From Acaryochloris marina MBIC11017 (GTDB taxonomy: Bacteria > Cyanobacteriota > Cyanobacteriia > Thermosynechococcales > Thermosynechococcaceae), in assembly GCF_000018105.1 (NCBI RefSeq), contig NC_009927.1, positions 180,001-212,000 on the forward strand: a DNA stretch of 32,000 bases, given 5' to 3'. The first letter of the stretch is position 1, and every line of letters begins with the position of its first letter. The notes under the pieces were generated by a model. The model had not been told where the DNA came from. It saw nothing but the letters and a program-made list of their open reading frames with translations, and did not search any database. The position numbers and the translations under genes are program-made. Shown piece after piece: positions 5,624 through 26,183 of this stretch.

Positions 5624-6620
5624 AGGTGCCCCCTTTGATTAGTAGATAGCTATCGGTAAACCGATTCTTGTAGCCGCTAAATTCAGGCGCACTCAGATCG
5701 GGGAAGGCCGCTGACATTTCCTCTAATTCAGTTTTTAGGTATCGCAGCTTCGGCCCGAACTTGGCCTTAAGCTCTGGACCCCAGACCGGATGGCTACCCC
5801 CAGTCACATAAATCTTGGTTGCAGTGGTGAGCGGGCGAAAGCGATCAAACCTCTCGGAAATCTTAGGCCAAACCTTAGCCTTAGCGCTTTTTAGGATCCG
5901 CCTTGCTGATTGCAATTCTTCCTTGTCCGAGAAGGCAAGCTTGAGACCGTTCTTGTTTCGCACTTCACGACAAATCAGCGTAGCCAAAATCAGCTCATCG
6001 GAAACATGGATGCCGCATTCGTTAATCAATGCAATCATGCCCATTCCCGTGAGAGTCAAACTCTGCTTGGTGATAACGCGACCCTCTCGAACATAAAGAA
6101 TCGAGATGTCTTTGTGACCAAACATGATTGCAATGGCTTCGGCATCTTGAATCTGAGATGCAATCCCCGAACCTTCAGGCAGTACCCGGACCCGTCGAAC
6201 TTTCACGTTTGGCTTAAGACCGTTGAACGTGGATCCATAAATACCTTTCTCTAAGTTCGCTTCCAAGGTCTTGAAATACCGTCCTTCTCCTTGAGGAAGC
6301 AGCACCGTTAGATCTACATAGCCCTCAGTAAAGTTCTCAGTCTCGATTGCTTTGCCCAGCATCCCTAATGCTCTTAAGCTTGCTTGTTCGGCTTTTTGTT
6401 GATGGATATTGGTCTCATAAATCCCATTCCCCGCACTAGCCCCCACGGTCCAGGCTCGATCCTTGTACTCAATCACGCAACTATCCGCTGTCAAGTCTCG
6501 GATCTTCTCTTCCTCAACCGCATTATCTTGAGCGATCCAATGCAAATTATTGTCGATGTAGTAGCATCCCTTCCCCAGGCTTGAACCCAAGTCAGTGCAT
6601 ATCGTCAAATCTCGATCCAT
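5613..6620 (-). CDS. actin-fold ATPase, ParM/StbA-like plasmid segregation protein
   Basis: Phosphate-1-like ICTDLGSSLGKG at the N-terminus, LPEGSGIA, and late VTGGS. Size is 335 aa. An iteron array lies immediately upstream. Confidence 0.55.
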   Translation of the reverse strand: MDRDLTICTDLGSSLGKGCYYIDNNLHWIAQDNAVEEEKIRDLTADSCVIEYKDRAWTVGASAGNGIYETNIHQQKAEQASLRALGMLGKAIETENFTEGYVDLTVLLPQGEGRYFKTLEANLEKGIYGSTFNGLKPNVKVRRVRVLPEGSGIASQIQDAEAIAIMFGHKDISILYVREGRVITKQSLTLTGMGMIALINECGIHVSDELILATLICREVRNKNGLKLAFSDKEELQSARRILKSAKAKVWPKISERFDRFRPLTTATKIYVTGGSHPVWGPELKAKFGPKLRYLKTELEEMSAAFPDLSAPEFSGYKNRFTDSYLLIKGGTYES

Positions 6621-7221: not shown

Positions 7222-8004
7222 CTACTGAAGAGGCCTGGGCGCAGAACAAACGACTCGAAAACCGAGATTGCTGCTGAGGCTCTTGGGGCTGTCGTTGTTG
7301 CGGTAAGCAGAGCGGCAAATCCTCGGATAGTGTTTCCAGGAGCCGCCGCGACGAATCCGACCAGCGCTTTCATTCTTAGACAACCAAGCACTCCCATCTG
7401 TGGGGGCACCTTTGTAACTGTCATGCCAATGGTCTTGGCACCATTCAAAAACATTTCCATACATATCACTCAGACCAAAAGCATTGGCTATGCCGAAGTG
7501 ATCGACAGGGGTTGTTTCTTCGCCCACATAATTAGCGACATCATTAGTGATGGTTTCCCCAAAATAGTAAGGAGTGGTGGTGCCTGCTCGACAAGCATAT
7601 TCCCACTCTGCTTCACTAGGTAATCGATATGGACGCTTCGTTAGGCTATCTAGTCGATTGCAGAATTCAACAGCCTCATACCAAGAAACTTGTTCAACGG
7701 GACGATTTTCGCCTTTAAAGTAAGAAGGTTCTGATTTTAAAGAACGCTCTACTGTTTCTAATTCAGCTACCACTTTCCACTGAGCTTGAGTGACGGGATA
7801 ACGTGACATAAAAAACGCCGGAACCGTCACCTCATGTTGTGGATCTTCGCGGCCCAATCGATCAGGCTCATCTTCTGGAGAACCCATCATAAAGGTGCCG
7901 CCCGGTACGAGAACCATATGGAGAGGCAAAGCATTGGGAATCTCTAACAGGGGTTCAATATATCCACTGCCAGTACGAGGGGTGCGTCGAAGGGTAGGGG
8001 CCAT
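7222..8004 (-). CDS. stand-alone FGE-sulfatase-fold (FGS/C-type-lectin-fold) protein, DGR target 1
   Basis: Family signatures [54 protein letters not shown] and RRGGSW...CRSAYR...[10 protein letters not shown]. No signal peptide or TM. Confidence 0.9.
7235..7355 (-). repeat. DGR variable repeat VR1 (3' end of 7222..8004)
   Basis: Aligns base-for-base with the TR at offset -951. Encodes [37 protein letters not shown]. Confidence 0.75.
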
Positions 8005-8177: not shown

Positions 8178-8306
8178 GAAGAGTGCTGGGCGCAGAACAA
8201 ACGACTCGAAAACCGATATTGTTGTTGCGGTTCTCGGGGTTGTTGTTGTTGCGGTAAGCAGAGCGGCAATTCCTCGGATTGTTGTTCCAGGAGCCGCTGC
8301 TTTGCG
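8178..8306 (-). other. DGR template repeat (TR), non-coding copy of the FGS C-terminus
   Basis: The minus strand reads ...[38 protein letters not shown] with 12 AAC/AAT codons. There is no upstream FGS domain, no start codon and no stop-flank element. Mismatches to the four VRs are almost all at TR adenines. Confidence 0.8.
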
Positions 8307-8557: not shown

Positions 8558-9394
8558 CTACGGAAGAGACCTGGGCGCAGAACACACTACACGAAAACCG
8601 ATACTGTTGTCGCGGAACTTGGGGTTGTCGTAGTAGCGGTAAGCAGAGCGGCAATACCTCGGATTGAAGTCCCAGGAGCCGCCGCGACGAACTCGATATG
8701 CACTGTCATTCTCAGATATCCAAGCACTTCCATCTGTGGGGCCACCATCATAATCATGCCAATGGTCTTGGCACCATTCCCAGACATTCCCATGCAGATC
8801 ACTCAGACCAAACGCATTGCCTCCACCAAAGTGATCTACGGGAGTCGTTTGTTGGCGGTATTCTCCTTTGGGGCCACCACCATAGGACCCTGACAAGCCG
8901 ATAGATTCATCACCAATTCCATCGTAATTTGCTAGGTCAGTGGTAATCGTTTCTCCAAAGTGAAATGGGGTTGTGGTGTCCGCTCGACAGGCATATTCCC
9001 ACTCTGCTTCCGTGGGTAAACGATATTGTCGATTTGTGAGGTTGGTGATGCGATCGCAAAACTCAACTGCGTCATACCAAGACACTTTCTCAACTGGGTT
9101 GAGGTCACCTTTGAAATTCGATGGTTCAGAATCTAGCTCCCGATTAACTTGTTCCATCGCTGCTACCACCCGCCATTGGGCTTGGGTGACGGGGTATTGA
9201 GCCATAAAAAACCGAGAAAGGGTTACCTCATGCTGCGGTCCTTCAAAGTCTGAGCGGTCAACTTCCTCATTCGGAGAACCCATCAGAAAAGTTCCAGCAG
9301 GTATCTGCATCATCCGCAAAGGCAGCACGCCCTCAGCAAGAATCTCGTCGTAGAACTGGAGTGGGGCTTTGGTTTTGGTTATCGTATAACTCAC
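8558..9394 (-). CDS. stand-alone FGE-sulfatase-fold protein, DGR target 2
   Basis: Same signatures: [52 protein letters not shown] and RRGGSW...CRSAYR...[10 protein letters not shown]. Confidence 0.9.
   Translation of the reverse strand: MSYTITKTKAPLQFYDEILAEGVLPLRMMQIPAGTFLMGSPNEEVDRSDFEGPQHEVTLSRFFMAQYPVTQAQWRVVAAMEQVNRELDSEPSNFKGDLNPVEKVSWYDAVEFCDRITNLTNRQYRLPTEAEWEYACRADTTTPFHFGETITTDLANYDGIGDESIGLSGSYGGGPKGEYRQQTTPVDHFGGGNAFGLSDLHGNVWEWCQDHWHDYDGGPTDGSAWISENDSAYRVRRGGSWDFNPRYCRSAYRYYDNPKFRDNSIGFRVVCSAPRSLP
8571..8691 (-). repeat. DGR variable repeat VR2
   Basis: Aligns with the TR. Encodes [37 protein letters not shown]. Confidence 0.75.
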
Positions 9395-9436: not shown

Positions 9437-12400
9437 CTACGGAAGAGACCTGGGCGCGGAACAAACGACTCGAAAACCGATAAGGTTGTCGCGGCCACCG
9501 GGGCCGTCGTTGAGGCGGGAAGCAGAGCGGCAATTCCTCGGAGGGCCGAGCCAGGAGCCGCCGCGACGCATCCGACGAGTGCTTTCATTCTCAGACAACC
9601 AAGCACTCCCATCCGTGGGTGCATCATAGTAATTGACATGCCAATAGTCTTGGCACCATTCCCAAACATTTCCATGCATGTCACTGAGACCAAACGCATT
9701 GGCAAAACTAAAATAATCTATAGGTGTTGTTTCTCCTCTTCTTTCACCTTTTGGACCATCTACAAAAGCACTTCCGCTGTAGTTAGCGACATCAGTAGTG
9801 ATCATGTCACCAAAGTGGAACGGGGTAGTGGTGCCCGCTCGACAGGCATATTCCCATTCGGCCTCCGTGGGTAATCGGTATTCACGGCCCGTGTATCTAG
9901 AAAGACGGTCACAAAACTCTATCGCGTCGAACCAGGATACTTTTTCTATTGGCCTATTATCCCCTTTGAATCTAGCTGGATCAGTCTCTAGTTCACGCTC
10001 AATCTGAGGTTGATTTGCAACGACTCGCCACTGAGCCTGGGTAATCGGGTAACGGCCTATAAAAAAGGACTCAACTGTAACTTGATGCTGAGGACCTTCA
10101 CGAACAAGCCTCTCAGGTTCAGTGTTTGGTGAACCCATCATAAAGGTACCAGCAGGTATTGATACCATTTCTAAATCTATTTTATCTAGTAGCCGCTCTA
10201 TATATCTATTTGCTGACTGTTGGTGTTGTTCCGTTTCCCATTTTTTCTGGCTCAAAATCAACTTAGCAACTGTAAAATCAAAGGATTCCACATTGATCGC
10301 ATCAGATATAGATTCCTCTGGCTGCAACCTTAAAATCGTGAAATCTCCTGTTTGCAACGGTGGCGGAAAGATATCTTGTTGAGAAGGCGGTACAAGGAGT
10401 GGATCATCCCAAAGGAAGGCTAGATCCCTAGCCCAATGGAATAATGGATTATCCTCTGTTGCTGCAAGACGAACGGCGAACACCTTCATGGGAATCTGCT
10501 CCATTGTTCCGTTGAGGATGTTCTCATTAAGAAACTGTTGCCAATTATCAGTGATTTTTTCTTTACGACTCCACAATACAATTGGAGTACCATTTTCAAG
10601 TACTCCTCTAACTTCTGCACTTTGGAAACCAGAGCCAAGGGTCAAGCCTAATCGAGAGCCTTGACTTAACGAGATCAGATCTTCAGGTTGACCAAAGGGC
10701 CAATTATCAAATGCATCGTTGGAATTATCGTTCCAACGTTCTTGCAACTGTGCCCACTGTAATTGCAATTTTTGGGTATATTGAAGACTCTCAACGCGCT
10801 CTTTTAAGCGCAACACTACAAAATTACAGTCCCTGCCAATCCCTATAGGATCATCGGTATTTGATAGAGAGGGGATGCCCATCTGTTCTATCGGTAAATC
10901 TAGTAAACTCTGGGGAAGAAACAGATGGATAGTGAAAACAGTCTTTTCAGTTTGGGTACGGGCTTGCTCTAATAAGCTGGCTAAAACACTTGGAATATCT
11001 TGAAAGGTAATCCCCTCAGATAATCTAGAGTCGCTACTACCATTTCCGTATCGATTGATATCCAAGGTAGATAAATACTGAACACCTTCTCCTGTCTGGG
11101 CATTGTAATTCTTGGGATTTGGCACCAACCAAGCGTCGACAAAGTACTGATCGGCCTTGGGACTACGTTCATCAAACGAGATAAGTAAAGTAGTGAGGGG
11201 CACTTTCGGAAGAATTTCTATGTCATTGGCAAGTACCCCTTCATCAAACTCGAATGCTTCGAGTTCAGGGAAGTTGATATATTCTGAAACTTGGTAGGTT
11301 AGGGTCTCATGGGTGAAACCTTCCAACCAAGCCACTTCATTTTGACGATTTTCTAAGCCTGAATCGTCTTGCCTCTGTTGACTCTCTAATTGGCGCACGA
11401 TTTCAGCAAAATCTGACCCAGCTGTACGTAAAATCTGAGCCGTCACTTTGGCAAAGGCTTTTAATCCATATTGGTCTACCTCATCTTTCAGATCAGGAGA
11501 TAGTAAGAGAGCTTGGAAATCAGCCAGTGTACAATTCAATCGTTCTGCGACATGTTGAGATACTTTTTCGATCACCTCAAGCTTGTCTACATTGGGTAGA
11601 ACATCCAGCAGGCGGTTGCGTACCGTCTCTGGAAAAAGATATTGTACGACTTCAGACTCTAACTCTGGTGGTTGTTCAGGTGCTTTGGTTAGTAGCCCTC
11701 CCAAAAACACCTCGGCCACAGGTAGGGGGGATGAACCAGGTAAGAACTCATCTGAAGCACGGATAAGTCGCATTACAGGCAGAGTTATAACAGGTGCTGC
11801 GGATAACAACGCAGCTAATCGCCGAGCTTCTGGCGTTGCCCTTAACCGAAAGTCTTCTAGCAAGCCATCAACAATTTCTTCTGACTCCAATTCGCTGGAT
11901 GTTGGGGTTGCGGACCATCCTGTTGAAGGCAACATAAAGCCTGGAGCTGAGTAGCGTCGATCTCCCGCTAACATTCGGCTCCAAGCACCAAGATATTCAC
12001 TATCACTCGTGATGATAGGAATACAGACTGGTGATGAGGATTGGGTTTCCTGGGTTTGGTCTGGTTCTTGATCACTCCGACGGCGACCACGATTCACAGT
12101 TGATCGCAAAGACATATAAATTGGGGTTAGTTTGGTGTTTTTTGCTCCCGGTGTTCGACTACGAACAGCCACATACTCTCCAATCCCTAATGCAGTTCGT
12201 TTCCACATCCAATCGGGTAACACTTGCCAGATCGCCGTGGGTGTTGAATCTCCCCAAAGGGACAATATTGGCTGCAACGAACCATCCCACCAGTAGTTGG
12301 CTGTGCAATCACTAAAGACTAAGATCAATCGCCGAGCATCGGGAGTTAAAAGTGCGTTAGGAGAGCGTAGTACTGGATCTGGGGCAGCACAGATGCCCAC

Positions 12401-13042
12401 TTCCCCCTGCTTCACATTGAGTTGCCAAACTCGAAAATCACGAAAAGAGCCATAACAGCGTAGCAACCTCCTTATATCTTGGATTAACCTCTGCCAAAGA
12501 TCCATCGCTGGGCTGCTATCAATGACCAAGGCCACTTCATACCACGGTTCTTGGTCCGGTTCTAGGATCGGGGACCAGATATCAGTTTCAGCAATGCGCT
12601 CAACTGTCTCAGCTTCATTCACTGAACTGCAAAACTGGGAATCAATTTGCTTCAAGATAGGCTTCAGTGCCCTGACTAGGGGTAAGGTTTCATCCAGAAT
12701 GTCAGGGTCAGGAATAGAGATGGGTAAAGCTTTTTGGGGAAGTTTCCCCGAAGGCAACTCCGGTGCAACGCCAAAGTCCGGTTCGTCTACCTCGTCATTC
12801 TGGTTATCATTGTCGTCATCCTCTTCGTTTCCTGCATCCTCTTCGTTTCCATTTTCCAAGTCGAGATTGTCATCATCAACATCCTCAAGCTCCAGGTTGT
12901 CATCAGGATCTTTGTTCTCTTGATCGACATCACTAACATCAAATTTCTCTGGTTCGCGCAATGCCAGCCATAGGATTTCAGCTATTTCAGTAGGGTCTAG
13001 CTTATATTCAGTCAGAGCGGACACAAATTGCTCAGTACTCAT
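9437..13042 (-). CDS. large multidomain protein: short N-terminal helical module, acidic linker, vWA-like domain, long middle region, C-terminal FGE-sulfatase-fold sensor (DGR target 3)
   Basis: vWA-like strand/MIDAS region YEVALVIDSSPAMDLW with a later LILVFSDCTANYW. D/E/N-rich linker at aa 36-90. The C-terminal 270 aa carry all FGS signatures ([10 protein letters not shown] ... RRGGSW...CRSASR...[10 protein letters not shown]). The start lies 14 nt after the MoxR stop. Confidence 0.85.
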   Translation of the reverse strand: MSTEQFVSALTEYKLDPTEIAEILWLALREPEKFDVSDVDQENKDPDDNLELEDVDDDNLDLENGNEEDAGNEEDDDNDNQNDEVDEPDFGVAPELPSGKLPQKALPISIPDPDILDETLPLVRALKPILKQIDSQFCSSVNEAETVERIAETDIWSPILEPDQEPWYEVALVIDSSPAMDLWQRLIQDIRRLLRCYGSFRDFRVWQLNVKQGEVGICAAPDPVLRSPNALLTPDARRLILVFSDCTANYWWDGSLQPILSLWGDSTPTAIWQVLPDWMWKRTALGIGEYVAVRSRTPGAKNTKLTPIYMSLRSTVNRGRRRSDQEPDQTQETQSSSPVCIPIITSDSEYLGAWSRMLAGDRRYSAPGFMLPSTGWSATPTSSELESEEIVDGLLEDFRLRATPEARRLAALLSAAPVITLPVMRLIRASDEFLPGSSPLPVAEVFLGGLLTKAPEQPPELESEVVQYLFPETVRNRLLDVLPNVDKLEVIEKVSQHVAERLNCTLADFQALLLSPDLKDEVDQYGLKAFAKVTAQILRTAGSDFAEIVRQLESQQRQDDSGLENRQNEVAWLEGFTHETLTYQVSEYINFPELEAFEFDEGVLANDIEILPKVPLTTLLISFDERSPKADQYFVDAWLVPNPKNYNAQTGEGVQYLSTLDINRYGNGSSDSRLSEGITFQDIPSVLASLLEQARTQTEKTVFTIHLFLPQSLLDLPIEQMGIPSLSNTDDPIGIGRDCNFVVLRLKERVESLQYTQKLQLQWAQLQERWNDNSNDAFDNWPFGQPEDLISLSQGSRLGLTLGSGFQSAEVRGVLENGTPIVLWSRKEKITDNWQQFLNENILNGTMEQIPMKVFAVRLAATEDNPLFHWARDLAFLWDDPLLVPPSQQDIFPPPLQTGDFTILRLQPEESISDAINVESFDFTVAKLILSQKKWETEQHQQSANRYIERLLDKIDLEMVSIPAGTFMMGSPNTEPERLVREGPQHQVTVESFFIGRYPITQAQWRVVANQPQIERELETDPARFKGDNRPIEKVSWFDAIEFCDRLSRYTGREYRLPTEAEWEYACRAGTTTPFHFGDMITTDVANYSGSAFVDGPKGERRGETTPIDYFSFANAFGLSDMHGNVWEWCQDYWHVNYYDAPTDGSAWLSENESTRRMRRGGSWLGPPRNCRSASRLNDGPGGRDNLIGFRVVCSAPRSLP
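9450..9570 (-). repeat. DGR variable repeat VR3
   Basis: Aligns with the TR. Encodes [37 protein letters not shown]. Confidence 0.75.
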
Positions 13043-13056: not shown

Positions 13057-14238
13057 TCAGGTCAAACGCCTTAGCAAAATCTGTTTGAGCATTTCAAGTT
13101 CAGTTTCTTTATCCTCTTCACTCAAACCCGAACCCGATAGCTGAGACTGGCGAACCATGTAAATTAAATTGAGGAGCTGATCCGTTGCCAAAGAAGACTG
13201 TTTACGCTGAAGATCCTTGGCAAAGTTCTCAATCAATTGTGCAACTTTTGGTTCTAATTCTGACCAGGGCAGTTCTGTCTTAGGGCGGTCTTTCCGCTCA
13301 AAATGAGCACCTACTATATGGGTTAAAACGGCACTGTCAGAAGGATCTGGCATCGTGATTCGCAGACAGCGGCGCAAAAAGGCGGGGGGAAAGTCACGTT
13401 CTCCGTTACTAGTCATAATCACCAAGGGGAACTCATAACAAGTAACCTTGCCTTGCTCAATGTCAGCAGGGAGACCTTCATCCTCTGTACGGACTGGAAC
13501 AGGCACATCCGTTTTGTAGCGGACGAGTTCAGGTATCTCAAAACTACCTTCTTCAAAGAGGTTGAGAAGATCATTCGGTAAATTCAGCTCGCTTTTATCA
13601 ATTTCATCTATCAGCAATACTCGGGGTAAATGGGAAGGTAAAAAAGCGGTACCTACCGGGCCAAGTTGGATATAATCGCCAAGATTTCTACCTTGTTTTA
13701 ATTCATCAATTTTGTTGTGATCTAATGGCTGATCGTCCGACTTTGCCAGCAGCAACTGGAGTTCAAGTTCCGATTTATCAAATTGGGTGTCCTGCAAACG
13801 GGCAATCGCATCATAGCGATACTGGGCATCAGAAAGCTTGGAACGAGTGGTAATGGGCCAGAGCAAAACTGGCCCCAGTTGTAATTCATAGGCGATCGCA
13901 TAGGCTAAAGAGGTCTTACCTGAACCTGGATTTCCCGTGATAAGTAGTGGACGTCGCAATGCCAAGGCTGAGTTTATAGCTGAAATAATTTCAGATTGCC
14001 TACCTTCAGATTGACGGATACGAAAGCTTTCGCCACGTTCTTTTGAACGAGTATCAAGACGATTTGAGTCTCGCAATTGCTTCCAGCGAGTTTTACTAGC
14101 ACCAGCCCACTTATCCTCAAAGATTGCTTGTGACATAAACTGCCGCCATGCGGGTCGCTCCTGAATAGGTTTCAGGGCGGCTTGGCGGGGTGTCCTATCT
14201 TCATTGGGTTGGGCTGTAAAAAATTTCCAGTCAGTCAT
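13057..14238 (-). CDS. MoxR-like AAA+ ATPase
   Basis: Walker A LLITGNPGSGKTSLA, Walker B VLLIDEIDKS, sensor-1 VIMTSN, Arg-finger region PPAFLRRC. Single AAA+ module of 393 aa. Operonic with the vWA gene, which is the classic MoxR-vWA pairing. Confidence 0.85.
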   Translation of the reverse strand: MTDWKFFTAQPNEDRTPRQAALKPIQERPAWRQFMSQAIFEDKWAGASKTRWKQLRDSNRLDTRSKERGESFRIRQSEGRQSEIISAINSALALRRPLLITGNPGSGKTSLAYAIAYELQLGPVLLWPITTRSKLSDAQYRYDAIARLQDTQFDKSELELQLLLAKSDDQPLDHNKIDELKQGRNLGDYIQLGPVGTAFLPSHLPRVLLIDEIDKSELNLPNDLLNLFEEGSFEIPELVRYKTDVPVPVRTEDEGLPADIEQGKVTCYEFPLVIMTSNGERDFPPAFLRRCLRITMPDPSDSAVLTHIVGAHFERKDRPKTELPWSELEPKVAQLIENFAKDLQRKQSSLATDQLLNLIYMVRQSQLSGSGLSEEDKETELEMLKQILLRRLT

Positions 14239-14264
14239 AGTGGAATCACCAATCTTTTGGGCTT

Positions 14265-16211
14265 TTAAGTCGGTTGCGTCAACCGACCGGATTCATTGAC
14301 AGCTAATGTAGGTAAGCACGGTATCCGGGTGCAATTATCAAATAAAAACCCCAGTTCTTGAATCTTTTTTCGGTGGGTCAAAATTGACTCTCCCAAGGCA
14401 GCAGATTCCGTAAAATTCTCGGGTTTCAACACTTTATCCACAGTCTTTTTGAATTCATCCCCATTTACAGGAGTTTCATAAGTCCACAACCAAAGTGGCA
14501 CTTTCTCTTCAATCACTCCTGAAATTAAGCTTCTTAATTCATCTATATCTTCTGGCAATGTCTCCCAAAGTTTAAAGACCAGTTTCTCCGGTAATTCGTC
14601 TTCAAATATTTCATCCGTGAAACACTCTACGCAACAGGTATGTTGATCTAGAGGTTGTTGCATAGTTTTTAACTGCTGCATTCTAACCTTTAAATCTTTA
14701 ATCCATAATTCAGACCAAAGTGGATCTAATAATCGATCTAATGAGCGAACAACAGTGTTGTATGGAAATCGCCAAAGTGGCTTACGACGTGTTTTTCCTA
14801 AACTCGTCCAAATTTTCCATTTGTGAACAGGCTGCCCAAAATGTTGCCAAGACAAGAAAATCTCAACCGCTCTCACTTCCCCCGCATTGGGAATTACTTC
14901 TGATAAGTGCTCCCATACTTGTTCAATCGAGCATTTAGGATAATCGGTTAATAAACTTGTTCTTGTTTGTTCTCCGCAAACATAGAGTTCCGCCAAAATT
15001 CGAACGGTATCTACCGTAGCACTTGCATCACCAGGTTCCGTATCTACAACAGGCTCTAATGTGACCAGAAGATATTTCTGACTCGGTTCTTGCTTTGGGT
15101 CAACTTCAAGCTCGGTGGGTGCGTTAGCGTCATACCATACCTGCCATTCAGGTTTTATTTCACATTCATTCTCATTGTTAGGAAAGTCTTGTAACTTTTT
15201 GATCAGATGACCGACCCAAGACACTGCCAACACCTGATCGTCCAACCGAATAAGGGCCTGCTTCAACGCGGCGAAGGTTTCAATCGAGCCTAGTAAATCG
15301 TCTTTACGATTGTCTAAAACCTCCCTCAGTGCAGCTTCAAGAAAATCTAGATCATAATCTCCCAAGCATATAAATAAATCGTCCCAAAACTTAGTCTCAA
15401 CCTTATAAGAAGTTTTCCCTACTCCAGGAATTCTGGGTTTAGGGTCATAATTTGCCAACAGGTGAAAAGCTAAAGCACTGGCATGATGAGAAGCCTTTTG
15501 CTGACGCTTATCTTCAGATTTTTGCCCCTTGCCATCATTCTTATGATCAATCAAGTCTGAGATGCCCCGAATCACAATAGCGGATAGTGGTTTGTCACGG
15601 GCATTGACAGCCTCAAGGAATCCATATCCTTCCATCTCCACGGCCAAAGCATCACTATAATTTTTTCGCAGCAATTTATAAACGTTCGACTCTTTTGAAG
15701 CCACTACCTTTTCGCCAACAGCGATTGGCCCCACCCTAAGGCGAGGGGTTGTATTATAAGGCTGTTTAACTCTTGCCAACCAATTTGGTGCTTCACTTCG
15801 GGCTTCTGCCTTGGCTTCCTCTACCAGGCTGAAGCCACTCAAGCCAATGTGAGGTCGTGGTTTGAATTCTTCCTCAGCCTTACCGGATTCATAGCCATAG
15901 ATTTTTGTAGACGCAACGACATCACCTATATCTACATCTTTTAGACCTCCCGCTACACCGACAAAGAAAACAACATCAGGATCAAAATATGTAATGGCCC
16001 GTTCTGTTTGTAGGGCAGATCTTGAGTCACCAGCTCCAGTCTGCACGATGCCTACTGTCCATATGCGACCATTCGCTTTAAATGTCCCCTTCTCATATCG
16101 ATTTCCTTCAGGATGAATAATGCGCGTGGGATCGGCGACAAACTTTCTTACTTCTTTAAATTCAACGGGTAATGCTGTCAGAATGACGGCTTTCAAGGAA
16201 TCCTGAACCAT
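14265..16211 (-). CDS. nucleoside phosphorylase/nucleosidase-fold (PNP_UDP_1-like) effector fused to a ~400-aa C-terminal region (vWA-MoxR-associated, VMAP-like)
   Basis: N-terminal 250 aa: AVILTALPVEF, VQTGAGDSRSAL, FFVGVAGGL, AVEMEGYGF and VIRGISDL. These are the conserved strands and loops of the MTA/SAH-nucleosidase / PNP fold. The stop lies 26 nt upstream of the MoxR start. Confidence 0.8.
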   Translation of the reverse strand: MVQDSLKAVILTALPVEFKEVRKFVADPTRIIHPEGNRYEKGTFKANGRIWTVGIVQTGAGDSRSALQTERAITYFDPDVVFFVGVAGGLKDVDIGDVVASTKIYGYESGKAEEEFKPRPHIGLSGFSLVEEAKAEARSEAPNWLARVKQPYNTTPRLRVGPIAVGEKVVASKESNVYKLLRKNYSDALAVEMEGYGFLEAVNARDKPLSAIVIRGISDLIDHKNDGKGQKSEDKRQQKASHHASALAFHLLANYDPKPRIPGVGKTSYKVETKFWDDLFICLGDYDLDFLEAALREVLDNRKDDLLGSIETFAALKQALIRLDDQVLAVSWVGHLIKKLQDFPNNENECEIKPEWQVWYDANAPTELEVDPKQEPSQKYLLVTLEPVVDTEPGDASATVDTVRILAELYVCGEQTRTSLLTDYPKCSIEQVWEHLSEVIPNAGEVRAVEIFLSWQHFGQPVHKWKIWTSLGKTRRKPLWRFPYNTVVRSLDRLLDPLWSELWIKDLKVRMQQLKTMQQPLDQHTCCVECFTDEIFEDELPEKLVFKLWETLPEDIDELRSLISGVIEEKVPLWLWTYETPVNGDEFKKTVDKVLKPENFTESAALGESILTHRKKIQELGFLFDNCTRIPCLPTLAVNESGRLTQPT

Positions 16212-16298
16212 TCAAATTTGTGATTTTTTTAGGGTTTCTAGTCTAATGCTCAGTAGAAAATACAAGTATAGTGATTAGGTAATACCATATTTAGAATA

Positions 16299-16853
16299 AT
16301 GGATCGAACTGAGAAAACATTACAAATATTTTTGGAAGAATATCGTGTCCTCAAAGCTGAACAAAATAGTCGAATCGGATTTCGAGACAATCTACTCTAT
16401 GTCACATTAGGTCTTTTTGGTGGAATCCTTTCTTTTGCCCTAACAAACGATAACGGGACAAACGCATTACTTGTTGTTCCTTGGGTCTGTATAGTTATGG
16501 GCTGGACCTATGTAGTCAATGATGAAAAGATTTCAGCGATAGGTCGCTATATTAGACACAATCTTGAAAAAAGGATTTCTAATCTCATTGAAGGGTCTGC
16601 AGATTCCGAATCTTTGTTTGGTTGGGAAAAAGCTCATCGCAGCGATTCTAAACGAACAAGTCGCAAATACTTACAGCTATTAGTAGACGAAGTTGCTTTT
16701 GTTTTTTCAGGCTTAGCAGCAATAGTTCTATTCTGCTTATCCAGTACTAATTGCCCAACCCCAATCATCATTTTAATAGCCTTTGAATCTTTCTTCCTCA
16801 TTAGTTTAGGAATCACAATTGCTATCTATGCTGATTTAGCAAAAGGACGCTGA
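16299..16853 (+). CDS. integral membrane protein (184 aa, about 4 TM), function unknown
   Basis: Hydrophobic segments LLYVTLGLFGGILSFAL, ALLVVPWVCIVMGWTYV, VAFVFSGLAAIVLFCL and IIILIAFESFFLISLGITIAIY. Divergent from the PNP-MoxR-vWA operon. Confidence 0.5.
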   Translation: MDRTEKTLQIFLEEYRVLKAEQNSRIGFRDNLLYVTLGLFGGILSFALTNDNGTNALLVVPWVCIVMGWTYVVNDEKISAIGRYIRHNLEKRISNLIEGSADSESLFGWEKAHRSDSKRTSRKYLQLLVDEVAFVFSGLAAIVLFCLSSTNCPTPIIILIAFESFFLISLGITIAIYADLAKGR

Positions 16854-16908: not shown

Positions 16909-17709
16909 CTACTGAAGAGGCCTGGGCGCTGAACAAACTACTCGAAAACCGATATGGCTGAGGCGGCTCTCGGGGGAGTTGTAGGAGCGGCAAGCAGAGC
17001 GGCAATCCCACGGATAGCTGTACCAGGAGCCGCCGCGAATAACGCTAGAGTCATCAATTCTATCCCCCTCCCAAAAGGGGCTACCATCTGATGGCACGTC
17101 AAGGTAATCAGAGCCGTAGTAGTCTTGGCACCATTCCCAGACATTGCCATGCATATCATATAACCCCCAACGATTAGGGGAATAACTTTCAACAGCACTT
17201 GTTTGGCCTATCATTTCATCTTCTAAGTAATTTGCCAGTTTGGGAGTGATTTTTTGCCCAAAATGATATGCAGTCTGAGTTTCAGCTCTACAGGCATATT
17301 CCCACTGGGTTTCACTAGGTAAGTGAAAATTTTTTCCAGTCTTTGATGACAGGCGCTTGCAAAATTCTACTGCTTCATACCAACTTACCGACTCTACAGG
17401 GAAGTCATCACTTTCGAATGCTGAAGGTGATAGATCTACAGTTCCATCTTGTTCTTCATACCCGGCTACTACCCGCCACTGTTCCTGAGTAACAGGTGTA
17501 GTTCCCATCAAAAATTGAGGTAATTGGATACATTTTTGGCGTTGTTTATCTTGGGTGTCACCTGATTCATTTTCATCATTACTAATCCACAATTCCCCTG
17601 CAGGAATAAGCATTAATGTCAGTGGCACATCATCACCGAGATCTATGGTGTAGCTCTCATTCGTACACTCATATTCAAAGAGGGTGAGGGAATCAACAGT
17701 ATTAGCCAC
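16909..17709 (-). CDS. stand-alone FGE-sulfatase-fold protein, DGR target 4
   Basis: [42 protein letters not shown] and IRGGSW...CRSACR...[10 protein letters not shown]. More diverged in its N-terminal half than the other paralogues. Confidence 0.9.
   Translation of the reverse strand: MANTVDSLTLFEYECTNESYTIDLGDDVPLTLMLIPAGELWISNDENESGDTQDKQRQKCIQLPQFLMGTTPVTQEQWRVVAGYEEQDGTVDLSPSAFESDDFPVESVSWYEAVEFCKRLSSKTGKNFHLPSETQWEYACRAETQTAYHFGQKITPKLANYLEDEMIGQTSAVESYSPNRWGLYDMHGNVWEWCQDYYGSDYLDVPSDGSPFWEGDRIDDSSVIRGGSWYSYPWDCRSACRSYNSPESRLSHIGFRVVCSAPRPLQ
16922..17042 (-). repeat. DGR variable repeat VR4
   Basis: Encodes [37 protein letters not shown]. In the 81-nt variable core, all 16 mismatches to the TR are at TR adenines (hand alignment). 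Confidence 0.8.
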
Positions 17710-17855: not shown

Positions 17856-20800
17856 ATGCTAAACATTACCACCATCAACTCAAATATCAAGGATGGGGCC
17901 AAGTACTACACCAAAGAAGAGAGTTACTACAGCCAAAACAAAGAAATTCAGAGCATGACTCAAACAGAATGGTTTGGCAGCATGGCACCGGATGAGCATT
18001 ACTCTGCCGAGCTTTTCACGGAGATGTTTTACGGCAACCTTCCCAACGGCGGGCGTATGCGAAATGAGGTCAAGGGAAAGGGCCAAGAACGCTTAGCTTA
18101 CGACCTTACATTCTCTGTTCCTGGTAAATCTCTCAGCATGTCTATCCACGGACCTAACGGAGATAAGCGACTCTGGAATGCCCACGTTGAGACTATCAAG
18201 GAAGTGCTGGCCATCGTAGAAGAACGCTACGCCGCCGCTAGAATTCAGGCCAACAATGATCGCCAAGTTGTGAAGACAAGCAGCATCGCCGCTGCCCTCG
18301 TCCACCACCATGAAACCAGAGCTGGGGATCCGCATGTACATACCCATGTCGTTCTTTTCAACGGCACCCTATGCCCGGACGGTGAATATAGGGCTATGTA
18401 TATCGAGCCTCTCATTAGAAGCGGTATTTTAGGCGATCTGTACGACCAGAAGATGGCCCTCAAAGTCCAAGAGCTGGGCTATGAAATCCGAGAGACAAAA
18501 ACAGGCTTTGACCTTGCCGGGGCTACAGATGAGCAGATTAAAAAATTCAGTAAGCGCTCAACGGAAATCGAGGATTATTTAAAAGAGAAAGGTTGGAGCA
18601 ACACCCCAAAAAATCGACAGAAGGCAACCTTTGAGACTCGAATCGGCAAGGATATTACGGAGTCATTAGAGCAGAAGCAGGAAAGATGGGGAGAAGAGAT
18701 GGCCTCAGTCGGTTTCCATGGCCTAACTCCTTCCGATCAACCTATCAAGCCTGAAAGCCAAGAGACACCCAGAGAGCTTTTAGACGCTGCTATCGAACAT
18801 CTAACAGAACATCAATCCTCGTTCAATGCCGAGGACATACAGCGGTTTGTGTTCTCTCACCTCCGAAGTTTTGATGAGAAGCCCTTGAACACCGAGATAT
18901 CCAAGCACCCGGACTTGCTAACTGCCTGGGATGGCCGACTGACTACACAGACCGCTGTCGATAGAGACCAACGAATTCTAGATATCGTCCTGTTTAAGGA
19001 TAGTAAGGTTGAACCGCTGAACCCAACCGCTGACTTTAGCGACACGATGTTAAACAGTGGTCAGGCCGAAGCCATGAAACGCTTACTCAGCTTTTCAGAT
19101 CAGTACCAAATCCTAAAGGGACTAGCAGGCACGGGGAAGACAACTGCTCTCGGCCTTGCAAGAGAGCAGTTACCCCCGGATGTCGATATCAAAGTTTTTG
19201 CACCTACCCACAACGCCAAACATCAAATCAGTGAGGCCTTTGGACTTAAGGGGGCAACCATAGCCAGCTTTGTTGTCAGCCCACCCCCAGAAGGGGCTAA
19301 CCAGCTTTGGATATTTGATGAAGCGGGCATGTTTGGCAGCGCAGACATGGAGAAGATACTTCAGAAAGCCGAACAGGTGGGGGCTAGGTGTTGGTTTGTC
19401 GGCGACACGGGTCAGAATGCCTCTATCTCTGCTGGTGCGCCTGTACGAATGCTGATGAATAGAGGGGTCACAGTTCACCGCCTTGACCAGATCATTAGAC
19501 AGCAAAACAAAGAACAGCTTAGGGCCGTTGAGCTTATCGCCGATGGTCACGGGGTTGAGGCTCTCAGAGCCTTAGAAAAAAATGGAAATATCAGAGAAGT
19601 CGAGGACTCGGAAACCAAGCTCACAAGTGCCGTTGCCTATTACATGGAGAAGCCTAAACATCGCCGAGACAAAACTCTCGTTGTGGTGGGGACCAATGCT
19701 GAGCGGTTTGGTTTTACCAAACTCCTAAGAGCCGAGCTTATCAAGGAAGGCCAGCTTACCAAGAATACAGAATTCACCCAGCTCCAGCGAAGAAACCTAT
19801 CTAAGGCCCAAAAGAAACGGGCCGAGAACTATAACAAGGGCGATTTACTGGTACTGCACAAGAAGCACCGACTCTATACCCAATTGCAGACCCATGTCCC
19901 TTATAAAGTCCTCGCCGTGGAGGGCAAAAAACTCAAGGTCCAATCACTGGGCGGTCGGAATTTCACCATCAATCCTGCAGAACATGAGTTAACCCAGGCT
20001 TATACGACAAGGCGCAATCAAATTGCTGTTGGTGATAAGCTCCGGTTCACTTCAACCAACATGAAAAAGGATATTCACAATAATGCTTTTTTGACCTGCA
20101 CCGATATCAAAGATCAGATTGCAACGGTCAAAGACAAACACGGTCGAGTGCATCACTTAGACCTCACCAAGCCCCTACAGATAGATCATGACTGGGCCAC
20201 TACCACTTATAGATCACAAGGTAGTACCAACTCAGAAACCCTCTATATTGCTAGCCTTAACCCTACCTCAGCTAGAGAATCCTTTTATGTTGGCATCTCC
20301 CGAAACAAGACTAAATACCTGACCGTATTTACGGAGGACCTGAGTAAGCTCCAAGAGTGGGTTGCACAGTCCAATGCTCAAGAGAACGCACTAGAGATAC
20401 TATTTGACCCCCATGCGGGCTGGAGTCCAACCTATGACAAGGAAGAACGGCCCTTTGGCTTGGATGAGGACACATGGACCGAGATGAAAGGTAGCGGTAT
20501 TCACCCCAACCTATTGACCTCGAACCATCTCCGAAGTGAAGCCCCCGATCCTTATGGATCTATCCGTGATAACCCACTAGTTGCAGCCCTCTTGGAGGCT
20601 GAGTTTACCAAGTCCAAATACGGCAAAGGCCAGGAAGTTACTGGCAAAATGAAACAATATCTACACGGTGCTTCGACAGTGGAAGGCCATACCGTCTATG
20701 ACCATGAAAAAGAATATGGTCGGATTGCTCAAGGTGGGGGTTGGATTGGTTATGGTGGCGTTGATTTGCTTTCAGTCATTGAGGGCAATCCTCAACCATC

Positions 20801-21809
20801 CCAGTATTGCCAGGTCAAACCTAAAACCCCCCGCATCTTTGACGGCAAAGAGAATAAGTATGAAACGCCGAAAGGGGTAGATCAACAAGTCTTCTTACCT
20901 CATATTCCCCATGAGATTGAGGAACGGATTTATCAGCGTAACGGTATCAGTCCCACCGCAGAGGAGCGGACTAAAGGTATCTGGTCTGTCGCGGACAAAT
21001 ACAATCTGCCCCTTGTCATCACAGAAGGCCTGAAAAAGACATGGGCATCCCTCAGCCAAGGTCACCTAACCGTAGGCTTGCCCGGTGTGACTGCCTTGTA
21101 CCGGGCTAAGAATGAACATGACGAGCGACTACCCCAGCGAGAGCTTACGGAATACGGCAAGGCCTTGGCTAAACCTGGCAGGCAAATCACGTTGGCCTTT
21201 GATCAAGACACGAAAGTATCGAGCATCCTAAATGTGCGCCGAGATTTGGTGAGAACAATCGAGCTAATGCAGACTAGGGGAGTTGTCTGCAAGATTGCCC
21301 AATGGAAGCCAGAGCTAGGTAAAGGCCTGGACGATCTAATTGTGAAAGCTGGCCCGAAAGCCTATAACCTTGCGATCGCAAATGCTGTTAGGCCTGATGC
21401 TGAAATTAAGCGTCACTATAGAACCCAGTACAACGCCATCACCAAGCGGGCTATAAAACGCTTCGGCGACATACCTAAAGAACGGCTGGACATGGAAGTT
21501 TACAGCTATTGCCTATCACCGGATAACGGCGCAACCATCAATGATGCCCATCGGTTCTTGTCCGCTTCGGATCACATGCGATCGGCTGAACCTGGGGACT
21601 ATAAGCGCTATATGCTGGCTATCCACAAAACCCATGGGATCTATCAGGATATTTTGGCCTCTGGTAAGCCACCTAATGAATTGGTGACAAAGCTGGTCGA
21701 GCATTCGGTTTATGAACAGCTAGCCGAAGAACTCAAAGAGAAAGACCTACTCTATCCAGAGCAGACCCTTTCAGATAATCAATCTCAGGGTTATTCAGTT
21801 GGGTTCTAG
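17856..21809 (+). CDS. MobF-type (TrwC/TraI-like) relaxase fused to a RecD-like helicase and a C-terminal Toprim (DUF3854-like) domain
   Basis: N-terminal Tyr pairs (AKYYTKEESYY). His-triad motif HHHETRAGDPHVHTHVVLFN. Helicase Walker A GLAGTGKTTAL, Walker B LWIFDEAGM and TTYRSQGST. C-terminal Toprim Glu VITEG and acidic AFDQDT. Confidence 0.9.
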   Translation: MLNITTINSNIKDGAKYYTKEESYYSQNKEIQSMTQTEWFGSMAPDEHYSAELFTEMFYGNLPNGGRMRNEVKGKGQERLAYDLTFSVPGKSLSMSIHGPNGDKRLWNAHVETIKEVLAIVEERYAAARIQANNDRQVVKTSSIAAALVHHHETRAGDPHVHTHVVLFNGTLCPDGEYRAMYIEPLIRSGILGDLYDQKMALKVQELGYEIRETKTGFDLAGATDEQIKKFSKRSTEIEDYLKEKGWSNTPKNRQKATFETRIGKDITESLEQKQERWGEEMASVGFHGLTPSDQPIKPESQETPRELLDAAIEHLTEHQSSFNAEDIQRFVFSHLRSFDEKPLNTEISKHPDLLTAWDGRLTTQTAVDRDQRILDIVLFKDSKVEPLNPTADFSDTMLNSGQAEAMKRLLSFSDQYQILKGLAGTGKTTALGLAREQLPPDVDIKVFAPTHNAKHQISEAFGLKGATIASFVVSPPPEGANQLWIFDEAGMFGSADMEKILQKAEQVGARCWFVGDTGQNASISAGAPVRMLMNRGVTVHRLDQIIRQQNKEQLRAVELIADGHGVEALRALEKNGNIREVEDSETKLTSAVAYYMEKPKHRRDKTLVVVGTNAERFGFTKLLRAELIKEGQLTKNTEFTQLQRRNLSKAQKKRAENYNKGDLLVLHKKHRLYTQLQTHVPYKVLAVEGKKLKVQSLGGRNFTINPAEHELTQAYTTRRNQIAVGDKLRFTSTNMKKDIHNNAFLTCTDIKDQIATVKDKHGRVHHLDLTKPLQIDHDWATTTYRSQGSTNSETLYIASLNPTSARESFYVGISRNKTKYLTVFTEDLSKLQEWVAQSNAQENALEILFDPHAGWSPTYDKEERPFGLDEDTWTEMKGSGIHPNLLTSNHLRSEAPDPYGSIRDNPLVAALLEAEFTKSKYGKGQEVTGKMKQYLHGASTVEGHTVYDHEKEYGRIAQGGGWIGYGGVDLLSVIEGNPQPSQYCQVKPKTPRIFDGKENKYETPKGVDQQVFLPHIPHEIEERIYQRNGISPTAEERTKGIWSVADKYNLPLVITEGLKKTWASLSQGHLTVGLPGVTALYRAKNEHDERLPQRELTEYGKALAKPGRQITLAFDQDTKVSSILNVRRDLVRTIELMQTRGVVCKIAQWKPELGKGLDDLIVKAGPKAYNLAIANAVRPDAEIKRHYRTQYNAITKRAIKRFGDIPKERLDMEVYSYCLSPDNGATINDAHRFLSASDHMRSAEPGDYKRYMLAIHKTHGIYQDILASGKPPNELVTKLVEHSVYEQLAEELKEKDLLYPEQTLSDNQSQGYSVGF

Positions 21810-24329: not shown

Positions 24330-26183
24330 TTATAGAGGCAGTACAGTAACGGGCTTATCGTCACCCTGTGCTTGGGCCTGTGCCTCTTTCTCGGCCTTCT
24401 CCTTGGCTTTCTTAGCGGCTAACTCCCTAGCTCTTACTACGTCGGGGTGTGGTAGCAGGGAATTGGCTACTCGCTCTCTTAAGGCGATCTCATCTTCAAT
24501 GGTGACGGTGGTTACTTTCCCGGTTTCGGGATCTGTAAAAGAGGTTTGATTGCTTGCGTGTTCTTCCTGCAAAGCTGGTAACAGTTTTTCTTCCCAAGCC
24601 TTTACGCATTGTTTCTCCATTTTGGCCGTCTTGGAATTTGGATCGTAAGGAATCGGCTTATCTAGAAAGCTAATTGGGTGAGGGTATGAAGCGCTTGATA
24701 TCACGCAACGTCCCGCTAATTTCTGCTCGTCCAGCTTTTCAGCGGGAACTAATGGAACCTCTTTAAGCTGATCACTTGATCCGGTAGTCCTATTATTCGA
24801 GCTGTGAGACGAGTTGGCCGTATTGATAACGATGGTCTTCTTACCTAAGCTCTCAGAAACGATTTTGTGATAATCGTGTTCACCCGTATTGAAATAGGCT
24901 TTGTTCTTCAGGTTCGCCTCAATTCCCTTCCATTGAGCTTTGCCGTAGGCCTCTTCCATAGCGCTGTTTTGCTGGTAGGCAAGCCAGAACGTACCGCCTT
25001 TCTTCCGAGCCAATTTAGCGAGTGCGCTTAAGTCAGGCAGAATGAAAAAGTTAGCCTCATCGCTAATCAGGGTAAGGTTTCTGTCTCTGTTTCTTTGAGG
25101 GTCAAGATTGTAGTTGAGCCATAAGTGCAAGGCTGTAGCAACTAGCGGGGAAGTAGCTTTAAGCTGAGTCCGATCGAGCCGACAATAGACGATCGACGGT
25201 CCCGAATGCTCAAGGGGAATTGTCGAGGGCAGGAAGGCCTTAGCTACTTCAGGATCAATGAACTTTGAGAACATATTAAACGCGCTCGACTGGATCGAGG
25301 CTGAGGGGCTGTCTCCTTTGCCCTTACCTTGGCTTGCAACCGCTCTTAAGCCAGCGCTGGACTGTTTAGCGTAGAACGAAAGCTCTTTGCCAAGCCGCCC
25401 TGTTTTAGCTGCGATGTCCAACCTTTCGGCTAAGTCCGGTAGCGTAATGATGGCCCAAACCATGAGCATGTCAGGGTATCTGGATCCTTTAGCCAACATC
25501 AGGGCCGTTTCCATCAGTGCATCACTCTGTGGCCCAAAATAGGCATGGCGTTTTTGCGTGTCCTCTTGGGTATTGACGTTGAGGCCTCTGCTAATCTCTT
25601 GGGCCTTCGCTTTGTCGTTTGGATGCCTCATCACTTCCAGGAAGTTAAACGATCCGCCAAACTGTACAAGCTTGCCAAGGGGTGATAGGGACTGAACGCC
25701 AGGGGCATAGGCGTAGATTCGACCTTTGTAACCGTTAGCGTGAGCGTATGCCGCTGTTGCTTTAATCAGCTCTCCTTCAACGTCAGTGACAAAAATTGAA
25801 TGCTTTTGCTTGATTGCCGATCTGAGTGTTGGGATTATAAAATTCTTTGATTTACCCGTACCCGATAGACCAGGGAAAACGCCGCCTGGATTACTGAAAG
25901 CAAATGTGATGCCGGTTTCTGGGTTCAGCTCAAATGCTGTTTCTGTTAATTCTCCTTTGGCAATTTGCCGCCGTGCCTCTCGGTTCCCTGCTCTGATCTC
26001 ATCCTTGGTTGAGAAACGAGCATTAGGCATTCCGTCAGGGATCTCAGTCTTAGGCTTGCCGTTCAGGATAAACACACAAACGACAAGGATCACGACTGCG
26101 ATTATCGGACCAACGAAAGTCCCTAAGCCTTGCTGTTGTCCTGGCTGTGGTGGCCTTGGTGGTGGCTGGGTAGAAGATTGCAC
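24330..26183 (-). CDS. type IV secretion coupling protein (VirD4/TraG/TraD-like ATPase)
   Basis: N-terminal TM FVGPIIAVVILVVCVFIL. Walker A FPGLSGTGKSKNFIIPT. Walker B-like LTLISDEANFF. Size and position next to relaxase/T4SS genes fit. Confidence 0.75.
   Translation of the reverse strand: MQSSTQPPPRPPQPGQQQGLGTFVGPIIAVVILVVCVFILNGKPKTEIPDGMPNARFSTKDEIRAGNREARRQIAKGELTETAFELNPETGITFAFSNPGGVFPGLSGTGKSKNFIIPTLRSAIKQKHSIFVTDVEGELIKATAAYAHANGYKGRIYAYAPGVQSLSPLGKLVQFGGSFNFLEVMRHPNDKAKAQEISRGLNVNTQEDTQKRHAYFGPQSDALMETALMLAKGSRYPDMLMVWAIITLPDLAERLDIAAKTGRLGKELSFYAKQSSAGLRAVASQGKGKGDSPSASIQSSAFNMFSKFIDPEVAKAFLPSTIPLEHSGPSIVYCRLDRTQLKATSPLVATALHLWLNYNLDPQRNRDRNLTLISDEANFFILPDLSALAKLARKKGGTFWLAYQQNSAMEEAYGKAQWKGIEANLKNKAYFNTGEHDYHKIVSESLGKKTIVINTANSSHSSNNRTTGSSDQLKEVPLVPAEKLDEQKLAGRCVISSASYPHPISFLDKPIPYDPNSKTAKMEKQCVKAWEEKLLPALQEEHASNQTSFTDPETGKVTTVTIEDEIALRERVANSLLPHPDVVRARELAAKKAKEKAEKEAQAQAQGDDKPVTVLPL

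Follow-up and report, generated by a model that had tools for sequence, protein, structure and literature searches.

Here we analysed a stretch of 32,000 nucleotides (nt) of DNA from Acaryochloris marina MBIC11017 (hereafter, the window; positions 180,001 to 212,000 of contig NC_009927.1, a plasmid replicon of 356,087 bp) and found that the gene at window positions 14265..16211 (minus strand, ATG at 16211) encodes what is, by sequence and operon context, the VMAP component of a VMAP–MoxR–vWA ternary conflict system. Its product of 648 amino acids (aa), which we refer to as PNP-VMAP, consists of an N-terminal nucleosidase domain of the PNP fold, a variable all-alpha middle region and a C-terminal VMAP-C domain. 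We consider it probable (about 60%) that PNP-VMAP is an ATP/dATP nucleosidase effector that is held off until the MoxR–vWA pair remodels the complex. Ternary systems in which the VMAP protein carries a PNPase domain were described computationally in 2020, and the biochemistry of the effector domain was established in 2023 for relatives. The data also suggest a new, previously unremarked linkage between the PNP domain and a four-helix membrane protein, the 184-aa product of the adjacent gene, which is a candidate partner of that domain.

An earlier note on this DNA, made from the letters and open reading frames alone, had proposed a nucleosidase-fold effector here; both the gene and the fold are real, with matches far beyond chance, and those parts of the proposal that could be checked held up. 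On the plus strand, translation of the same interval yields nothing but stop codons. The protein is identical to ABW31987.1 (UniProt A8ZLG0), annotated as ‘nucleoside phosphorylase, putative (plasmid)’, and Pfam places aa 8–252 (15456..16190, minus strand) in PNP_UDP_1 (PF01048; E = 4.9e-24; score 85.4 bits, gathering cut-off 25.1), with the match spanning profile positions 2–232 of 233. All four landmarks quoted in the note for aa 1–250 are present: TGAGDSRSAL (aa 58–67), VGVAGGL (aa 84–90), VEMEGYGF (aa 191–198) and IRGISDL (aa 214–220). A sequence search against solved structures matched the domain to many 5′-methylthioadenosine/S-adenosylhomocysteine (MTA/SAH) nucleosidases (MTANs; best E = 1.7e-8). 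An AlphaFold model of the full-length protein, built from an alignment of 42 relatives, has a mean pLDDT of 80.6, with aa 10–250 mostly at 80–94, and Foldseek matched it to at least 50 MTAN chains in the PDB at E of about 1e-15 and target TM-scores of 0.72–0.83. The superposition of the PNP domain on MTA/SAH nucleosidases, which the note had proposed as a check, was obtained at a target TM-score of about 0.8.

The catalytic residues are conserved. Across the 42 relatives, E17, E167, M193–E194 and R215-G-I-S-D219 are invariant or nearly so. Glu12, Met173–Glu174, Arg193, Ser196 and Asp197, which we take to be the catalytic set of Escherichia coli MtnN, have their equivalents in E17, M193–E194, R215, S218 and D219. 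The earlier note had proposed looking for a loss of the catalytic acids; E17, E194 and D219 are all kept, and D219 aligns in sequence with the catalytic Asp of DtcC, D353. Changing DtcC D353 to Ala abolishes Detocs defence, and the catalytic Asp of Cap17 is D472 (Rousset et al. 2023, bioRxiv 10.1101/2023.01.24.525353). On the basis of these alignments, the PNP domain is predicted to be a catalytically competent, Cap17-type nucleosidase.

For the question of substrate, the domain was compared by BLAST with Cap17, DtcC, sponge DDAN and fungal NLRN, the sequences of which were taken from the supplement of Rousset et al. 2023. The match to Cap17 is the strongest (E = 2.9e-13, 32% identity, 52 bits over 123 aa, the Cap17 sequence comprising only the first approximately 150 PNP residues), followed by DtcC (E = 4.9e-10), DDAN (E = 1.7e-9), E. 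coli MtnN (E = 1.3e-7, 37 bits over 184 aa, with a provisional MtnN sequence whose residue numbers agree with the literature) and fungal NLRN (E = 0.02). By pairwise score, the PNP domain is therefore nearer to Cap17, DtcC and DDAN than to MtnN. The PADLOC model for the CBASS ‘PN-superfamily effector’ also matches it (E = 2.4e-15). Two motifs are common to PNP-VMAP and Cap17: an N-terminal ILTALPVE, and a loop in which YGYESGKAE-EEFKPRP of PNP-VMAP corresponds to YYESAAALEGGKFAPRP of Cap17 (common pattern Y-x-Y-E-S...K-F-x-P-R-P). This loop (Y105–P120) is of the clade type, with K111 and R119 invariant among the 42 relatives. The residues that presumably form the hydrophobic 5′-alkylthio pocket of E. 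coli MtnN, which we number V102, F105, Y107 and P113, align here with K111, with E113/E114 or a gap, and with E114/F116; only the Pro is kept. An invariant K111 and R119, together with acidic residues in place of the alkylthio pocket, would suit a phosphorylated 5′ end.

Domain architectures point in the same direction. In the closest relatives of the PNP domain (55–60% identity), the fusion partners are STAND NTPases, TIR, SEFIR, EADs, FGE-sulfatase, GUN4 and TPALS, and one of these relatives (P0079) is a cyanobacterial TPALS–PNP protein of Cap17 architecture with 55% identity. What the earlier note had stated on Cap17, Detocs and fungal NLRs agrees with Rousset et al. 2023. In that study, all four tested members of the Cap17 clade, from bacteria to sponge (Cap17, DtcC and the PNP domains of a fungal NLR and of a sponge Death-domain protein), split ATP, and also dATP, into adenine and the corresponding sugar triphosphate, and the domains were toxic in isolation. 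The Cap17 clade of the same study has 42 cyanobacterial entries, including entries from Leptolyngbya PCC 7375 and PCC 6406, and also takes in cyanobacterial NLR-like PNPs. Both of these Leptolyngbya strains carry PNP-VMAP orthologues, to which the IMG gene ids of the clade entries are not mappable, and Table S4 of that study contains no Acaryochloris gene. That the PNP domain belongs to the Cap17 clade is thus supported but not proven.

A different substrate within the same system role—AMP, NAD+, a nucleoside or a signalling nucleotide instead of ATP/dATP—is, in our view, quite improbable. The identity to assayed ATP nucleosidases is only about 24–32%, the PNP superfamily spans many substrates and, among solved structures, those nearest to the domain are of MTA/SAH and futalosine nucleosidases, all of which leave room for such an activity. 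Against it stand the retention of MTAN-type adenine-recognition and catalytic residues, the replacement of V102/F105 by K111 and acidic residues in a K111/R119 loop that is common to Cap17 (YYES..GKFAPRP), and the preference for ATP that clade members from very distant organisms all show. The earlier note had also raised an ‘NAD-type’ activity, for which we found no specific support.

We find it barely credible that PNP-VMAP has an ordinary housekeeping function, as an MTA/SAH nucleosidase or a futalosine hydrolase, and was fused by chance to an unrelated domain. RefSeq names for orthologues do include ‘5'-methylthioadenosine/S-adenosylhomocysteine nucleosidase’, and MtnN is the best match in both NCBIfam and the PDB. 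However, the scores fall far below the equivalog cut-offs for MtnN (71.6 compared with 169 for PRK05584; 35 compared with 73.8 for TIGR01704) and for futalosine hydrolase (56.2 compared with 124.7 for TIGR03664), the alkylthio pocket is not conserved, the VMAP-C fusion and the MoxR–vWA context are kept in about 40 orthologues, and every one of the closest PNP relatives is a fusion, to a STAND, TIR, SEFIR, EAD or FGE-sulfatase domain. We rejected both housekeeping assignments on the basis of these scores and the operon context.

The remainder of PNP-VMAP is, as judged from a Pfam match and the structure model, the published VMAP-M plus VMAP-C module. The earlier note had described the C-terminal region as rich in Trp and acidic residues, and the final 389 aa do exceed the N-terminal part in both (3.6% compared with 0.8% for Trp; 17.0% compared with 13.1% for acidic residues). 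The note had recognized no motif in the region; Pfam places aa 416–625 in VMAP-C (PF20028) at E = 2.5e-17, with a score of 64 bits (cut-off 27). In the AlphaFold model, this part is mixed alpha/beta and starts near aa 379, so that the VMAP-C domain, the predicted docking module for MoxR and vWA, extends over aa ~379–648 (14268..15077, minus strand). Preceding it, at aa ~271–365 (15117..15401, minus strand), is a VMAP-M-like variable all-alpha region with modelled helices at aa 273–283, 288–299, 313–323, 326–342 and 354–363; it has no match to any Pfam VMAP-M model. When the C-terminal 387 aa were modelled on their own with AlphaFold, from an alignment of 16 sequences, the result was poor (pLDDT 57.5), and its Foldseek matches in the PDB were no better than E = 0.039 and amounted to scattered RNase-H/PIWI-like noise.

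Around 40 full-length orthologues were recovered, at 40–80% identity; those with a source name are from Leptolyngbya-like and other cyanobacteria, and all have the VMAP-C domain. Across 40 orthologues, the PNP domain is the most conserved segment (entropy 1.04, 64% identity to the window protein), followed by VMAP-C (entropy 1.53, 42%), and VMAP-M is the most variable folded segment (entropy 1.83, 36%).

The operon itself has the gene order that defines VMAP ternary systems. VMAP, MoxR and vWA genes follow one another on the minus strand (16211–14265, 14238–13057 and 13042–9437) with gaps of 26 and 14 nt, and the same order recurs in four orthologous loci of Leptolyngbya-like cyanobacteria (L001–L004). 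The vWA and MoxR partners that the earlier note had invoked are thus present, directly downstream and on the same strand. The MoxR-type AAA+ ATPase (393 aa; 13057..14238, minus strand), identified by AAA_5/AAA matches, has Walker A (GNPGSGKT) and Walker B (LLIDEID) motifs and the N-terminal extension of VMAP-system MoxR proteins; in this extension, W4KFFT[A/G] and P29AWRQF are kept in five loci and are the counterparts of the WxhapG and PsWRxa motifs that are unique to MoxR proteins of VMAP systems (Kaur, Burroughs, Iyer & Aravind, eLife 2020; PMC7159879). That study defined VMAP ternary systems by their strict VMAP → MoxR → vWA order and described VMAP proteins as tripartite, with an enzyme or adaptor at the N terminus, then VMAP-M, which is all-alpha and variable, and finally the conserved VMAP-C; the PNPase superfamily is explicitly among the N-terminal domains that it lists. 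It also predicted a ternary complex with ATP-dependent remodelling by MoxR. We predict that the VMAP-M/VMAP-C part of PNP-VMAP tethers the PNP domain to the MoxR ATPase and the vWA protein; docking to these partners is what Kaur et al. predicted for such regions and what the earlier note had guessed for the C-terminal region.

The third protein of the operon, the vWA protein (1201 aa; 9437..13042, minus strand), begins with a SAV_2336-type vWA region (NCBIfam SAV_2336_NTERM, 347.6 bits against a cut-off of 200), contains an inserted VMAP-C (Pfam, aa 672–881) and ends in an FGE-sulfatase/C-type-lectin domain (Pfam FGE-sulfatase, aa 958–1193), the last part of which is a variable repeat of a diversity-generating retroelement (DGR). 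The insertion (aa 613–887; 10382–11206, minus strand) holds a second VMAP-C with a Pfam score of 107 bits, stronger than the match of PNP-VMAP itself. The window vWA protein is about 220 aa longer than its orthologues, and the inserted VMAP-C is missing from those of L001, L003 and L004; a word-index homology search with the inserted segment gave no close relatives, which is probably a sensitivity limit. In L002 (Leptolyngbya sp. PCC 7375; 13137–16212), a CRISPR-associated Csx3 domain takes the place of the lectin domain at the C terminus of the vWA protein, and a second Csx3 protein, with a weak iSTAND/AAA match, comes after the vWA gene. The replacement of lectin by Csx3 is indicative of effector or sensor swapping between close relatives. 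An Rfam scan of the window returned no RNA family, and a promoter and terminator scan of 13–18 kb gave fewer promoter-like sites than shuffled sequences and nothing usable.

The lectin domain of the vWA protein is a target of diversification. A 161-nt repeat family has five copies in the window, of which four are the 3′ ends of FGE-sulfatase-domain genes and the fifth is non-coding. We assigned the non-coding, adenine-rich copy (8178..8300, minus strand) as the DGR template repeat, on the basis of the repeat family and its alignment. The variable repeat with which the vWA gene ends on its 3′ side (9442..9564, minus strand) differs from it at 20 of 32 template adenines and at 3 of 91 other bases; over all four variable repeats, the mismatches fall at 11–20 of the 32 adenines and at only 2–4 of the 91 other bases. 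Such adenine-restricted mismatches are the signature of a DGR with one template and four variable repeats. The DGR targets are the vWA protein and three stand-alone lectin proteins, not the PNP protein itself. These three FGE-sulfatase/C-type-lectin proteins, all on the minus strand and identified by Pfam, comprise 266 aa (16909..17709; variable repeat 16914–17036), 278 aa (8558..9394; variable repeat 8563–8685) and 260 aa (7222..8004; variable repeat 7227–7349), and the first has a conserved position upstream of the membrane-protein gene. Around 80% of cyanobacterial VMAP systems are DGR-linked, according to Kaur et al. The open reading frames tested in the window include neither a reverse transcriptase nor an Avd gene; L004, an orthologous locus, has RVT_1 and bAvd genes directly after its vWA gene. 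The exact 1201-aa vWA protein, variable repeat included, was present in two independent read-set assemblies, L170 (SRR29694091) and L171 (DRR194263), a match indicating no detectable diversification between those two samples.

We propose the following mechanism for an ATP/dATP nucleosidase effector. The DGR-hypervariable lectin domain of the vWA protein, and perhaps also the three free lectin proteins, would bind an invader-derived ligand. The MoxR–vWA chaperone pair would then spend ATP on remodelling the ternary complex, and the PNP domain, restrained until that point through VMAP-M/VMAP-C, would be released or left to oligomerize, possibly as a dimer. In MTA nucleosidases, the 102–113 loop of the neighbouring subunit lines and completes the active site, and the equivalent loop of PNP-VMAP is the one that carries the invariant K111 and R119. 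Destruction of ATP and dATP would arrest or kill the infected cell and so abort the infection.

The direction of signalling in this scheme agrees with Dore et al., PNAS 2024 (PMC10907252), who argued for the hypervariable lectin domain as antigen sensor and for the VMAP N-terminal domain as effector. Targeting of the vWA lectin domain by the DGR fits their model, in which the signal would pass from sensor to MoxR to VMAP effector, and the direction is further favoured at this locus because the PNP domain is the sole enzymatic output domain that Pfam and NCBIfam recognize in the operon. In the related β-propeller–MoxR–vWA pathway, a 2026 preprint shows a threat-sensor role in Actinobacteria.

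Several points weigh against an ATP-depleting effector. Kaur et al. 2020 proposed the opposite logic, in which the VMAP N-terminal enzyme is the signal generator and the vWA C-terminal domains are the effectors. The placement in the Cap17 clade depends on pairwise scores and architecture, obtained with a partial Cap17 and a provisional MtnN sequence, and the PNP-VMAP model leaves the arrangement of the domains relative to one another uncertain (pTM 0.46). As no reverse transcriptase lies in the 32-kb window, current diversification of the sensor is unproven. We found no experiments on any VMAP system in the literature searched. Finally, simple ATP depletion does not explain the strong linkage between the PNP domain and a membrane protein, to which we now turn.

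The gene for this protein (ABW31988.1; 184 aa, four helices; 16299..16853, plus strand) is divergent from the PNP-VMAP gene across a spacer of 87 nt. A gene in the same place, the product of which is 65–68% identical, occurs in three of the four orthologous loci (L001:9306–9857, L002:9097–9651 and L004:9303–9857) and is missing from L003. The family is large: it has at least 1,468 relatives at 90% clustering and 1,450 clusters at 50% identity, 227 of these at E ≤ 1e-30, almost all of them stand-alone proteins of 140–240 aa. Pfam (E up to 10), NCBIfam and PADLOC provided no family for it; S_4TM reached only E = 0.37, and there was no match to SLATT. The predicted topology has four helices with both termini inside, and around 20 invariant polar residues lie mostly in the cytosolic N-terminal helix and in a 50-residue K/R-rich loop.

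Family members are strongly linked to PNP domains. Three contexts sampled at random had as neighbour a PNP fused to FGE-sulfatase, to TIR and to TPR, respectively. Among the 64 family loci with enough flanking sequence, 52 (81%) have a PNP domain no more than 1.5 kb away, with an arrangement that is divergent in 33, upstream co-directional in 8, downstream co-directional in 9 and convergent in 2. The membrane-protein gene invariably adjoins the end of its neighbour that encodes the PNP: where the PNP is N-terminal, the two genes are divergent or the membrane-protein gene is just upstream, and where it is C-terminal, the membrane-protein gene is just downstream. In a minimal pair, a PNP gene that stands alone (264 aa) precedes the membrane-protein gene by 18 nt. 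The sensors that are fused to the linked PNP domains include VMAP, STAND, TIR, FGE-sulfatase and TPR. Family loci without a nearby PNP mostly have other components of conflict systems as neighbours (EAD8 adaptors, STAND NTPases or TPR proteins), and a few neighbours are unrelated or lack a Pfam match. The reverse linkage is weaker, as only 12–16 of 64 close PNP relatives have a membrane-protein gene within 4 kb, which fits one membrane protein serving several PNP effectors. In a Nostoc sp. locus (L008:1454–14529), five PNP-domain genes (fusions to TPR/PIN–TPR–GreABC, to bDLD1 and others) surround a single membrane-protein gene, an arrangement that suggests a membrane partner common to several PNP effectors. 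We found no paper describing the PNP–membrane-protein pair in the literature searched.

The membrane protein may be a pore, an exporter, an anchor or a safeguard. The linkage raises the possibility, which we regard as unlikely, that the PNP domain is a signal generator, with the released base or sugar-phosphate as second messenger and the membrane protein as executioner pore or alarm exporter. Kaur et al. 2020 proposed such a role for PNPase domains, with the released base as messenger, and reported 2TM SLATT partners in related systems with nucleotide-related domains such as PNPase and TIR. The divergent gene in the window and in three of four sampled orthologous loci, the 52 of 64 family loci with a PNP within 1.5 kb and always at its encoding end, the minimal pair, and the invariant polar residues in the cytosolic helix and loop all argue for it. 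Nevertheless, isolated PNP domains of the Cap17 clade are toxic and deplete ATP without a partner, the membrane-protein gene is near only 12–16 of the 64 close PNP relatives and is missing from L003, and its product matches no known effector family. Depletion and signalling could also both be true, if a product of ATP cleavage were sensed by the membrane protein. A more specific proposal, which we advance only tentatively and at similarly long odds, is that the cyanobacterial Cap17-like PNP is one half of a mobile two-part effector cassette and the membrane protein the other; the latter would sense the PNP or its product (adenine or ribose-5′-triphosphate) and would respond either by permeabilizing the membrane or by exporting that product, which would serve as an alarm between cells. 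If true, this cassette would turn ‘ATP depletion’ into a signalling step.

Few of the immune-like systems predicted in multicellular bacteria are as widespread as VMAP ternary systems. The locus is an unusually simple test case, in which a single ATPase and a single hypervariable sensor accompany one enzymatic output, and for that output an assay (release of adenine from ATP) is already established; owing to this simplicity, it could discriminate between the two published models of the VMAP protein, as signal generator or as effector. The linkage to the membrane protein suggests that cyanobacterial ATP-nucleosidase effectors may not act alone, and such a partnership would bear on the interpretation of the homologous PNP domains in NLR-like proteins of fungi and animals.

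Other genes of the window are indicative of its plasmid setting. They encode a TrwC relaxase-helicase with DUF3854 (17856–21809, plus strand), a TraG/TraD-type (type IV) coupling protein (24330–26183, minus strand), a 1033-aa cell-wall hydrolase with an M23 peptidase domain (26754–29855, minus strand), a ParM-like actin (5613–6620, minus strand) and an IS605-family OrfB/TnpB (3468–4721, plus strand). The relaxase, coupling protein, cell-wall hydrolase and ParM-like genes fit a conjugative plasmid that carries a conflict system. A search of PLSDB plasmids with the operon DNA gave no match.

Compared with known systems, the locus resembles the VMAP ternary systems of Kaur et al., with which it has in common the gene order, the tripartite VMAP protein, the N-terminal aromatic/Arg motifs of MoxR and a vWA protein of the kind that has variable C-terminal domains, in cyanobacteria including DGR-diversified FGS domains. 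It differs from them in the second, inserted VMAP-C of the vWA protein, which the orthologues lack, in a middle region that falls outside the Pfam VMAP-M models, in the four-helix membrane-protein gene that flanks the operon and in the presence of a DGR template repeat without a reverse transcriptase in the window. Similarly, the DGR lectin systems of Dore et al. have a vWA protein with a variable-repeat lectin C terminus adjoining MoxR and a VMAP effector, adenine-specific mutagenesis and several targets per template; their effectors are trypsin-like peptidase or TIR domains, whereas that of PNP-VMAP is a PNP domain, and their reverse transcriptase and Avd genes are not in the window, although they are in the orthologous L004. 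With E. coli MtnN (PDB 1JYS and 1NC1), the PNP domain has in common the fold (TM of about 0.77), Glu12/Glu174/Asp197 and the Met-Glu and Arg-x-x-Ser-Asp motifs; identity is only about 21–26%, charged residues replace the 5′-alkylthio pocket, and PNP-VMAP is a fusion protein that scores below the equivalog cut-offs and is encoded in a non-metabolic context. The domain also resembles Cap17 of type III CBASS and DtcC of Detocs, which have the PNP_UDP_1 fold with the catalytic Asp at the equivalent position and, in Cap17, the ILTALPVE motif and the Y-x-Y-E-S...K-F-x-P-R-P loop. In all three proteins, the effector domain is joined to a sensing or regulatory module, and it is this controller that differs: a cyclic-oligonucleotide-binding TPALS domain in Cap17, a phosphoreceiver in DtcC and, by our prediction, VMAP-C together with the MoxR–vWA pair in PNP-VMAP.

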